A stretch of 12,488 nt of DNA from a virus. Lineage: Duplodnaviria > Heunggongvirae > Uroviricota > Caudoviricetes. Positions within the stretch are counted from its first letter, which is position 1; each line of letters opens with the position of its first letter. The position numbers were made by a program. This document shows, piece by piece, positions 1 through 3,000 of this stretch. The stretch is taken from the IMG/VR virus record IMGVR_UViG_2698536449_000008. One strand, written 5' to 3'.

Positions 1-3000
1 TGGAGGTCCAGTCCGTCACCGACGGCGTGAAGGTGAAAGTGAGCCGGGTTCCTGACGGCGTTGCAGAATACAGCGTGTGGGGGCTGAAGCTGCCGACGCT
101 GCGCCAGCGTCTGTTCCGCTGCGTGAGTATCCGTGAGAACGACGACGGCACGTATGCCATCACCGCCGTGCAGCATGTGCCGGAAAAAGAGGCCATCGTG
201 GATAACGGGGCACACTTTGACGGTGACCGGCGCGGCACGGTGAATGGTGTCACGCCGCCAGCGGTGCAGCATCTGACCGCCGAAGTCACCGCAGACAGCG
301 GGGAATATCAGGTGCTGGCGCGATGGGACACGCCGAAGGTGGTGAAGGGTGTGAGCTTCCTGCTTCGCCTGACCGTGGCAGCGGACGACGGCAGTGAGCG
401 GCTGGTCAGCACGGCCCGGACGACGGAAACCACTTACCGCTTCACACAACTGGCGCTGGGGAACTACAGGCTGACAGTCCGGGCAGTAAATGCGTGGGGG
501 CAGCAGGGCGATCCGGCGTCGGTATCGTTCCGGATTGCGGCACCGGCAGCGCCTGTCACTATTGAACTGATACCGGGGTATTTTCAGATAACGGCGGTCC
601 CGAAANGAATCCGGTCAGCGTGGAGGTCCAGTCCGTCACCGACGGCGTGAAGGTAAAAGTGAGCCGTGTTCCTGACGGTGTTGCTGAATACAGCGTGTGG
701 GGGCTGAAGCTGCCGACGCTGCGCCAGCGTCTGTTCCGCTGCGTGAGTATCCGTGAGAACGACGACGGCACGTATGCCATCACCGCCGTGCAGCATGTGC
801 CGGAAAAAGAAGCCATCGTGGATAACGGGGCGCACTTTGACGGCGACCAGAGCGGCACGGTGAATGGTGTCACGCCGCCAGCGGTGCAGCATCTGACCGC
901 CGAAGTCACCGCAGACAGCGGGGAATATCAGGTGCTGGCGCGATGGGACACGCCGAAGGTGGTGAAGGGCGTGAGCTTCCTGCTCCGTCTGACCGTAACA
1001 GCGGATGACGGCAGTGAGCGGCTGGTCAGCACAGCCAGGACGACGGAAACCACATACCGCTTCAGGCAGCTGGCGCTGGGGAATTACAGTCTGACAGTCC
1101 GGGCGGTAAATGCCCGGGGGCAGCAGGGCGATCCGGCGTCGGTATCGTTCCGGATTGCCGCACCGGCAGCGCTGTCGCGGATTGAGCTGACGCCGGGCTA
1201 TTTTCANNNNNNNNNNNNNNNGCTGGCGCTGGGGAACTACAGGCTGACAGTCCGGGCAGTAAATGCGTGGGGGCAGCAGGGCGATCCGGCGTCGGTATCG
1301 TTCCGGATTGCCGCACCGGCAGCGCCTGTCACTATTGAACTGATACCGGGGTATTTTCAGATAACGGCGGTCCCGAAACTGGCTGTATATGACCCGACGG
1401 TGCAGTTTGAGTTCTGGTTTTCGGAAAAGCGGATTGCGGATATCAGGCAGGTTGAAACCACAGCACGCTATCTTGGCACGGCGCTGTACTGGATAGCCGC
1501 CAGTATCAATATCAGGCCGGGCCATGATTATTATTTTTACGTTCGCAGTGTGAACACCGTTGGCAAATCGGCATTTGTGGAGGCCATCGGTCGGGCGAGC
1601 GATGATGCAGAAGGTTATCTGAATTTTTATAAAGGGTTGATCAATAAAACGCATCTCGGCAAGGAGTTGTGGACGCAGATTGATAACGGTCAGCTTGCGC
1701 CGGACCTGACTGAAATCAGGACGTCCATTACGAATGTCAGCAATGAAATCACGCAAACCGTCAATAAAAAACTGGAAAATCAGAGTGCTGCAATCCAGCA
1801 GATACAGAAAGTTCAGGTTGATACAAATAATAACCTGAACAGCATGTGGGCTGTGAAGCTGCAACAGATGAAGGACGGACGCCTTTATATTGCGGGTATC
1901 GGTGCCGGTATTGAGAATACGCCAGCAGGAATGCAGAGTCAGGTGCTGCTGGCGGCAGACAGGATTGCGATGATTAATCCTGCGAATGGCAACACAAAGC
2001 CGATGTTTGTTGGTCAGGGCGATCAGATATTCATGAACGACGTGTTCCTGAAATGCCTGACGGCTCCGACCATTACCAGCGGCGGTAATCCTCCGGCATT
2101 TTCCCTGACACCTGGCGGACGGCTGACGGCGAAAAATGCCGATATCAGCGGTAACGTGAACGCGAACTCCGGGACGCTCAACAACGTCACGATTAATAAG
2201 AACTGTCGGGTTCTGGGAAAATTGTCCGCGAACCAGATTGAAGGCGATCTCGTTAAAACAGTGGGCAAACCTTTCCCACGGGACTCCCGGGCACCGGAGA
2301 GGTGGCCATCAGGGACCATTACCGTCAGGGTTTATGACGATCAGCCGTTTGATCGGCAAATTGTTATTCCCGCGGTGGCGTTTCGCGGTGCTAAACATGA
2401 GCGGAAGAATAACAATATTTATTCGTCATGCCGCCTGATAGTGAAGAAAAACGGTGCTGAAATTTATAACCGAACGACCCTGGATAATACGCTGATATAT
2501 ACGGGTGTTATTGATATGCCTGCCGGTCACGGTCACATGACGCTGGAGTTTTCTGTATCGGCATGGCTGGTAAATGGCTGGTATCCCACAGCAAGTATCA
2601 GCGATTTGCTGGTTGTGGTGATGAAGAAAGCCACTGCAGGCATCACGATTAGCTGAATTTTATAACCCAGATACGGGCACCAGAAATGGTGCCTTTTTTA
2701 TTGCAGAAAAGCGAGAGGTAATTATGCGTAAAGTTTGTGCAGCCATTTTGTCCGCAGCCATTTGCCTGGCCGTATCCGGTGCGCCTGCATGGGCGTCTGA
2801 ACATCAGTCCACGCTGAGCGCCGGGTATCTTCAGACCCATACTGATATGCCAGGCAGCGATGACCTGAAGGGCATTAACGTGAAATACCGTTATGAGTTT
2901 ACGGACACGCTGGGGCTGATTACGTCATTCAGTTATGCCAACGCTGAAGATGAGCAAAAAACGCATTACAGCGATACCCGCTGGCATGAGGATTCCGTGC

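Follow-up and report, generated by a model that had tools for sequence, protein, structure and literature searches.

The locus studied here, IMG/VR record IMGVR_UViG_2698536449_000008, raises the question of whether a lambda-type tail gene truly carries one of its domains three times in a row. At the start of this stretch of 12,488 nucleotides (nt), which as a whole we call the window, the same part of about 600 nt of J, the gene of the tail-tip attachment protein, is covered by two successive fragments (A and B) and again by the first ~160 nt of a third (C); this part codes for the Ig_J domain. We consider it very likely that the triple repeat is a scaffolding artefact from near-identical prophage copies of Shigella sonnei, and not a tandem duplication. 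The threefold Ig_J feature is not biological, and gene order, copy number and local haplotype across the joins are not trustworthy. A preliminary description of the window had also denied a real tandem duplication, which is borne out by the runs of N at the boundaries, the single copy of J in closed genomes, the shifting breakpoints of draft assemblies and the many copies of the insertion sequence (IS) IS21. Its wording of a scaffold artefact stands as well, but not that of a 'collapsed' repeat, as what is seen is a false expansion of redundant contigs from different paralogues.

Runs of N bound every copy of the repeat

The window contains four runs of N, at 606 (1 N), 1207-1221 (15 N), 5829-5831 (3 N) and 11870-12136 (267 N), which split it into five blocks: A (1-605), B (607-1206), C (1222-5828), D (5832-11869) and E (12137-12488). 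The J fragments, called with Pfam, and the joins, from an N-run scan and at 606 also from the open reading frames (ORFs), are as follows.

1-605, plus strand: block A, fragment of J (tail-tip attachment protein) with one complete Ig_J domain (PF24421, E 8e-43)
606, no strand: single-N join of blocks A and B, where the reading frame shifts
607-1206, plus strand: block B, second J fragment, the same interval as A (J columns 1-600), with a complete Ig_J (PF24421, E 4e-44)
1207-1221, no strand: 15-N join of blocks B and C
1222-2656, plus strand: start of block C, 3' part of J (c-type), beginning within Ig_J at profile position 73
5829-5831, no strand: 3-N join between the IS21 terminus and the middle of J from another prophage
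5832-7312, plus strand: start of block D, 3' part of J (d-type), beginning within Ig_J at profile position 64
11870-12136, no strand: 267-N gap, a true sequence gap, filled by 187 nt of AT-rich DNA in closed genomes (L009, 13907-14093)

The identity of the gene is clear, as the Pfam domains Ig_J, Ig_J_second, Phage_Tail_Tip and Ig_GpJ_C all lie above their gathering scores and RefSeq annotates the matching interval as gpJ. The joins had been described as sitting at N characters, and mapping of the N runs places one at every boundary between repeat copies (606, 1207-1221 and 5829-5831), as an artefact predicts. Uninterrupted sequence, as a tandem duplication would show, crosses none of the copy junctions, each of which is a run of N. 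The three short runs, unlike the 267-N gap, are placed at paralogue or IS boundaries. The long gap is a genuine coverage gap whose size is overestimated by 80 nt compared with the 187-nt intergenic region of closed S. sonnei genomes.

Block A (1-586) and block B (621-1206) share 552 of 585 positions (94.4%), the differences being 33 mismatches and a small compensated indel, and are 97% identical over the first 300 nt. They are thus near-identical, as the preliminary description had it, but differ by more than the few single-base changes it mentioned. Block B truly starts at 607, a base that in J lies 14 nt upstream of the position of window base 1. Between A (450-605) and C (1223-1378), 155 of 156 positions agree, the sole difference being G539 versus C1312, which is synonymous; base 1222 of block C also differs from base 449 of block A. 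The segment 1222-1380 therefore repeats the 3' end of A exactly at the protein level but not at the DNA level (155/156). The relation of B to the J copy at 5832 is likewise only partly as first described: a 12-residue string is shared and the last 91 nt of B (1116-1206) are identical to D 5907-5997, but the preceding 75 nt hold 9 mismatches. Over the full comparison (B 1041-1206 versus D 5832-5997) the agreement is 157/166, with all 9 mismatches in 1054-1115. D 5832-5949 is instead identical to A 421-538, i.e., D matches A where B diverges before 1116. Identities of 94-99% over repeats of 150-600 nt are far beyond chance.

The reading frame is not retained across the A/B join, as it should be in a functional tandem duplication. 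A is in frame 3 while B and C are in frame 2, in agreement with the frame change at 606 that had been noticed before. Mechanical ORF calling gives one ORF at 27..650, ending 44 nt past the join at 606, and one at 620..2656 (678 aa) that continues across the 15 Ns.

The Ig_J interval occurs once per J in closed genomes

Closed S. sonnei loci were reached through exact-protein look-ups of the tail-fibre protein and of the truncated side tail fibre (stf'). The comparison loci are the set L009-L014, including L009 (CP104423.1) and L012 (CP019689.1), as well as L017 (CP010829.1). According to PMC5447701, CP019689.1 is S. sonnei 75/02, CP010829.1 is S. sonnei FORC_011 and HE616528.1 is S. sonnei 53G. 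The surrounding sequence covered extends ~7.9 kb upstream of the first base of block D in L009-L014 and ~10 kb downstream of stf' in L017.

Block D (5832-11869) is 100.000% identical over 6038 nt to closed CP104423.1 and CP019689.1, and its 1027-aa tail fibre is residue-identical in closed HE616528.1, CP019689.1 and CP104423.1, among others. In L009-L014 the J that holds block D, here J_D, is an intact gene of 1165 aa with the usual tail genes upstream, and no IS21 is found in the ~7.9 kb upstream of the block D start. Window 1222-4126 is 99.62% identical to FORC_011, where the order is an intact J of 1159 aa, lom and then stf' cut by IS21 (stf'::IS21). Within ~10 kb downstream of stf' in that genome J_D was not found; further IS elements and sit-type transporter genes lie there. 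Blocks C and D thus have their counterparts at two distinct loci, each in a different closed genome, and at each locus the flanking sequence covered lacks the other module. This agrees with the earlier proposal that several near-identical prophage tail genes have been concatenated. In all of L009-L014 and L017 the Ig_J interval is present once per J. The earlier warning that gene order across the N junctions should not be trusted is thereby upheld, as the closed genomes have one J and no IS21 beside J_D.

The same picture is obtained from a collection of 5426 complete E. coli genomes, which does not contain S. sonnei. Window 1-1380 is matched in 4547 of the 5426, and the best 20 rows were inspected. 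In these 20 best-matching genomes the pieces A, B and C all stack on one gpJ interval of ~620 nt, and no tandem Ig_J was seen in any of these records.

Breakpoints shift between draft assemblies

Six contigs in IMG/VR and seven CXxx01-series drafts at NCBI carry the stf'::IS21 junction, which has 0 matches in species-representative genomes and none among the complete E. coli genomes. The CXxx accession series are the S. sonnei drafts of Holt et al. 2012 (PMC5447701). Contigs without N (L005, L007, L008 and L020) carry IS21, stf', lom and J with one Ig_J interval. In the scaffolds with N (L003, L004, L006, L018, L019 and L021), pieces of J or J-lom are repeated or mismatched across single-N joins. 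The stacking is clearest in L006, L018 and L019: L018 has four J mid-fragments stacked across four N joins, and in L019 the Ig_J interval is repeated across one N. These breakpoints differ from those of the window, and the window's own copy junction was not found in independent assemblies or closed genomes, as the sibling drafts break elsewhere. An artefact that turns up at variable positions and only at Ns, among members of a clonal species, has its source in how the genomes were assembled and not in the genomes themselves.

Gene calls of 1919, 728 and 279 aa are annotated at L018 33-5792, L019 33-2219 and L021 2630-3469, respectively; no Pfam hit is recorded for them. As they run across stacked J fragments and N joins, artefactual proteins have probably entered the protein databases.

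The window itself is probably one whole short-read draft scaffold of S. sonnei. Closed S. sonnei sequence matches block E at 100%, and the window stops within an IS1 left end.

12458-12488, plus strand: IS1 left end, first 31 nt (GGTGATGCTGCCAACTTACTGATTTAGTGTA), where the window ends (compared with L009 14415-14445)

In closed L009 this left end (14415-14445) is followed by the IS1 genes at 14470-15167. The stop at an IS1 end together with the odd length suggests a whole short-read scaffold that ends at a repeat boundary. The 31-nt stub also hints at the k-mer or overlap length that was used.

The join between IS21 and J

Block C ends with a complete IS21 element, whose ends were aligned to IS21 and ISEc62 copies.

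3699-5828, plus strand: complete IS21 (TGTCAGCGCC...GGCGTTGACA)
3800-4972, plus strand: istA (Pfam rve/Mu-transpos_C_2)
4969-5769, plus strand: istB (Pfam IstB_IS21)

The assignment to the IS21 family follows from istA (DDE transposase) followed by istB (AAA+ helper), from the terminal inverted repeats TGTCA...TGACA and from RefSeq matches annotated as IS21. Block C ends on the last base of the element (GTTGACA at 5828), and after NNN the sequence continues directly in the middle of J from 5832, just as the preliminary description had it. An IstA identical to that of the window occurs at ten or more chromosomal sites in closed S. sonnei CP104423.1 (L070-L079), with a ribosomal protein, csg, tol-pal and ilv among the neighbouring genes. 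With an identical IstA at ten sites, short reads cannot tell which flank follows a given copy.

A simple insertion of IS21 into J is not seen here. The left flank is stf (...GATGAAG), the right flank is NNN and then CGACGG of J, and there is no 4-bp duplication. In the sibling draft L006, J_D extends 679 nt further upstream before the N at the equivalent join. The join at 5829-5831 is the end of a contig at a repeat boundary, abutted to a contig that starts in the middle of J from another prophage.

A real insertion of this kind is known from closed E. coli VTB97379v (NZ_CP178682.1, locus L001), isolated from chicken, where ISEc62 lies within J at L001 4297-6424, ~180 nt downstream of the block D start position. 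It resembles the window in that an IS21-family element with the same terminal sequences adjoins J. However, in L001 the element has J on both sides, with ACGC as a 4-bp target duplication, in a closed sequence free of Ns, while in the window IS21 has stf on its left and, beyond NNN, J of another prophage on its right. An ISEc62-like insertion into J was accordingly rejected for 5829-5831, given the different flanking genes, the missing target duplication and the intact J_D of closed genomes.

In FORC_011 (L017 10740-13811) other IS elements split the stf-cutting IS21 at two places, equivalent to window 4126 (4122-4126, 5 bp, on both sides) and 4796. The 3' part of IS21 (4797-5828) is absent from the downstream sequence covered in L017. 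The intact IS21 body of the window may have been borrowed from other copies.

Fragments A and B are mosaics

To describe the haplotypes, blocks A-D were aligned to the closed alleles J_C (from L017) and J_D (from L009), giving 62 diagnostic columns. The two alleles, written c1-c2-c3 and d1-d2-d3, are 92-97% identical over the first 2 kb and share exact runs of 26-79 nt. Closed chromosomes and most contigs without N are pure c or pure d, and block D is pure d. Block A is c1-d2-c3, with c at 21 sites, d at 11 sites (columns 427-509) and c again at 20 sites. Compared with the J of closed FORC_011 it has 11 mismatches, all in columns 427-509 and all with the J_D state, and its two switch points lie in shared runs of 26 and 43 nt. 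Block B has d-like flanks and c at those same 11 sites (columns 427-509), plus further alternations, while block C is d-type in its first 91 nt and then c.

In an exact-string search of IMG/VR (2.9 million contigs), the 86-nt string across c1-d2 of A and that across d1-c2 of B have 0 matches each, while the parental 86-mers are present in 22 loci (c1-c2) and 29 loci (d1-d2). The best identity in the complete E. coli collection is 97.7% for A and 97.2% for B. Among ~150 fetched copies of J, neither A nor B has an exact match (the best for A has 11 mismatches, the best for B 14), while block D has 21. The 199 residues of B have a best IMG/VR protein relative at 98%.

The J that is linked to IS21 at one and the same insertion site appears with at least four assembled haplotypes across S. 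sonnei assemblies. It was assembled as pure c in closed FORC_011, L007 and L008, d-then-c in L005/L020, c-d-c in L019 and another mosaic in L006.

From these data we find it rather likely that A and B are chimeras from a failed short-read phasing of paralogues and not true alleles. As they look chimeric, the local sequence is suspect as well as the gene order. Two simpler origins of B were tried and rejected. As the true 5' part of the J at 5832 it would have 17 mismatches to closed J_D (11 in the swapped tract and 6 elsewhere), and as a two-donor mosaic, or as any allele of the ~150-copy panel, it fails because three to four donors are needed and residual mismatches remain.

How the scaffold may have arisen

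We suggest that the source was a repeat tangle of several lambdoid prophage J-lom-stf modules and multi-copy IS elements. A de Bruijn assembler would split the J paralogues into short contigs wherever they share an exact run or meet an IS boundary, as expected when the paralogues are 92-97% identical with exact runs of up to 79 nt. A greedy read-pair scaffolder could then chain small contigs of different J copies through ambiguous pairs. A gap filler would lengthen the two edges by majority voting over k-mers, with closure only where the lengthened edges overlap and agree with the estimated size. Merging may be blocked by differences between the paralogues or by a wrong estimate for a gap that is really negative, and overlapping edge content and a short run of N would then be left. 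The outcome would be the redundant ~600-nt contigs A and B and the 5' end of C placed in series, i.e., a false threefold Ig_J repeat. A single N in SSPACE output presumably denotes a predicted negative gap; a literature search for such a rule gave nothing usable.

We infer that the software was a pipeline of the Velvet, SSPACE and GapFiller type. The Sanger pipeline, with which 299 S. sonnei genomes were assembled into 405 contigs on average, uses SSPACE and GapFiller (Page et al. 2016, PMC5320598); by its authors' own account both tools are greedy and can make false joins. GapFiller works inwards from the two edges of a gap, choosing each extension by a majority vote among k-mers, and the gap is closed only when the two sides overlap and give a length in keeping with the estimate (Boetzer & Pirovano 2012, PMC3446322). 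As in the output of such pipelines, the window has small runs of N of variable length (1, 3, 15 and 267) and its siblings have single-N joins; the edges in the window are extended into each other's territory without being merged, in repeats where extension 'finds multiple alternatives'.

A closely related error was described by Kelley & Salzberg 2010 (PMC2864568), where, as in the window, near-identical sequence on neighbouring contigs separated by a gap mimics a very recent tandem duplication. Neighbouring contigs overlap or contain one another here too (A/C 155/156, A/B 552/585 and B/D 157/166). B lies within the span of A, which is the type of 'duplicated contained contigs', and the end overlap of A and C (155/156) is the type of 'duplicated overlapping contigs'. 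In their study the two versions are haplotypes of a diploid, while in the window they are paralogous prophage copies in a haploid bacterium. In this sense the window holds the bacterial, paralogue-driven counterpart of those contig duplications.

Alternative explanations

Phage tail proteins gain and lose Ig-like domains, and a genuine tandem triplication or duplication of Ig_J within one J, through unequal recombination between prophage copies of J and with the Ns as ambiguous base calls, would fit such a history. The single N at 606 could formally be an ambiguous base, and one shared frame runs from B into C over the 15 Ns. However, the frame shift between A and B would truncate J, and runs of 15 and 3 Ns are not base ambiguities. 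A single Ig_J per J is seen in the closed S. sonnei genomes with 99.6-100% identity to C and D, no tandem is present in the top complete E. coli matches and the 'duplication' of the sibling drafts has other breakpoints, always at Ns. Nor are the copies derived from one another, as each is a mosaic of other paralogues, and we consider a real triplication extremely improbable. It is also very improbable that the junction at 5829-5831 is a real IS21-mediated rearrangement that fused truncated stf to the middle of J from another prophage, for which recombination between two IS21 copies is one possible route. Many IS21 copies are available for this in S. sonnei, ISEc62 truly lies in J ~180 nt away in closed E. 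coli (L001), and L006 also adjoins the stf'::IS21 and J_D blocks. The breakpoint at 5832 is nevertheless not conserved, as J_D reaches 679 nt further upstream in L006, and J_D is uninterrupted upstream in closed chromosomes that are 100% identical to D. The junction is NNN and the next base does not restore a 4-bp target duplication, and in FORC_011 the ~10 kb covered downstream of stf' shows IS elements and sit-type transporter genes, not J_D. That this fusion is real, and/or that A (c1-d2-c3) and B (d1-c2-d3) record a true reciprocal exchange of an Ig_J tract of ~85-125 nt, is on the whole very improbable.

A milder alternative is that only the order is artefactual and the sequences are real, with A-D as faithful pieces of three or four J alleles and with A and B as mosaics of ectopic gene conversion. 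S. sonnei drafts do hold at least four J-like sequence types (L018), mosaic J occurs naturally in contigs without N (L005/L020, L047 and L059), L006, an independent draft, has a copy that agrees fully with the d2-c3 segment of A, and the one-base difference between A and C (539 versus 1312) is what two real copies might show. On the other side, A and B are reciprocal over the same tract of ~83 nt. Gene conversion is normally non-reciprocal, while path switching in an assembly graph gives exactly such a pattern. The diagnostic combinations are also found 0 times in IMG/VR, compared with 22 and 29 loci for the parental ones, and A and B have no exact match in the ~150 copies or the 5426 complete E. 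coli genomes. Finally, the J haplotype linked to IS21 differs in almost every short-read assembly and is pure c in FORC_011, L007 and L008. We therefore regard this alternative as unlikely.

Some observations do weigh against an assembly artefact as the full account. The joins were judged from the assembled sequence, and the pipeline is deduced from the sibling CXxx01 drafts. The junction of d2 and c3 in A (387-605) recurs unchanged in the copy of L006, an independent draft, and part of the mosaic of A could be a real lineage-specific gene-conversion tract. Likewise, B could be a genuine third J allele and not a chimera. The 26-nt run at the first switch point of A is shorter than typical k-mers, so simple path switching in a de Bruijn graph is not the full explanation. 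The sibling L006 also adjoins the stf'::IS21 block to the J_D block, which is reproducible for the pipeline although contradicted by the closed genomes.

Consequences for database users

With the scaffolding artefact as the preferred explanation, the significance of the window is practical only. Public scaffolds of this kind give false gene models, such as the 678-aa 'J' ORF with a duplicated Ig_J and, in sibling drafts, false ORFs of 728 and 1919 aa. They also give false tandem duplications, false adjacencies of IS elements and genes, and chimeric alleles of a host-range protein. Studies of Shigella/E. coli prophage tail diversity, domain duplication, IS targets or recombination should mask the sequence beside N runs and, for J, lom and stf, rely on closed or long-read assemblies only. 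If the reciprocal J exchange or the IS21 fusion were true after all, the window would capture ongoing ectopic recombination, by which determinants of host range are reshuffled among the resident prophages of a clonal pathogen.

Tail modules and remaining genes

The window contains two tail modules. Module 1 consists of the 3' part of J, lom and stf' cut by the complete IS21, and module 2 of the 3' part of J, a shorter lom, stf and tfa. The genes downstream of J are as follows; Pfam families PF08400, PF03406, PF07484 and PF02413 cover stf-tfa.

2724-3323, plus strand: lom copy 1 (Ail/Lom outer-membrane protein), 199 aa (Pfam PF06316, E 4e-129)
3387-3713, plus strand: stf', truncated side tail fibre, 108 aa (PF08400, profile positions 1-104/134)
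7383-7865, plus strand: lom copy 2, 160 aa, the same 160-aa gene being called in closed genomes
7964-11047, plus strand: stf, intact, 1027 aa, the exact protein being present in closed S. sonnei
11047-11628, plus strand: tfa, tail-fibre assembly gene

The order is that of the lambda-type GpJ/lom/stf/tfa module, i.e., Ig_J, Ig_J_second, Phage_Tail_Tip and Ig_GpJ_C, then Lom, the side tail fibre and the assembly protein. Apart from the artefact, nothing is unusual compared with a lambdoid tail module: one stf is cut by IS21 and the other module has a shortened lom, both as in closed S. sonnei. The cut in stf' is at 3698/3699, and the last codons and the stop are supplied by the end of IS21. This stf'/IS21 junction is present in FORC_011 and in several drafts.

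The two lom copies are in register, at an offset of 4659, up to ~3200/7859, after which the offset drops by 83 nt. This implies a 3' deletion of ~83 bp in copy 2. As closed genomes have the same 160-aa call, the shorter copy is real and not an artefact. Between the modules, 97% identity is found over the lom-stf intergenic region and the start of stf (3278-3418 versus 7854-7995), and read pairs placed ambiguously in such shared segments could have linked blocks C and D. The segment also includes a GC-rich hairpin with a T run behind it (GCCCGC..GCGGGCTTTTT), which looks like the lom terminator.

In the tfa of S. sonnei 53G (L011, at 13206), ~63 nt are missing compared with window 11171-11233 and the other closed genomes, and the gene is called as 150 aa there versus 193 aa.

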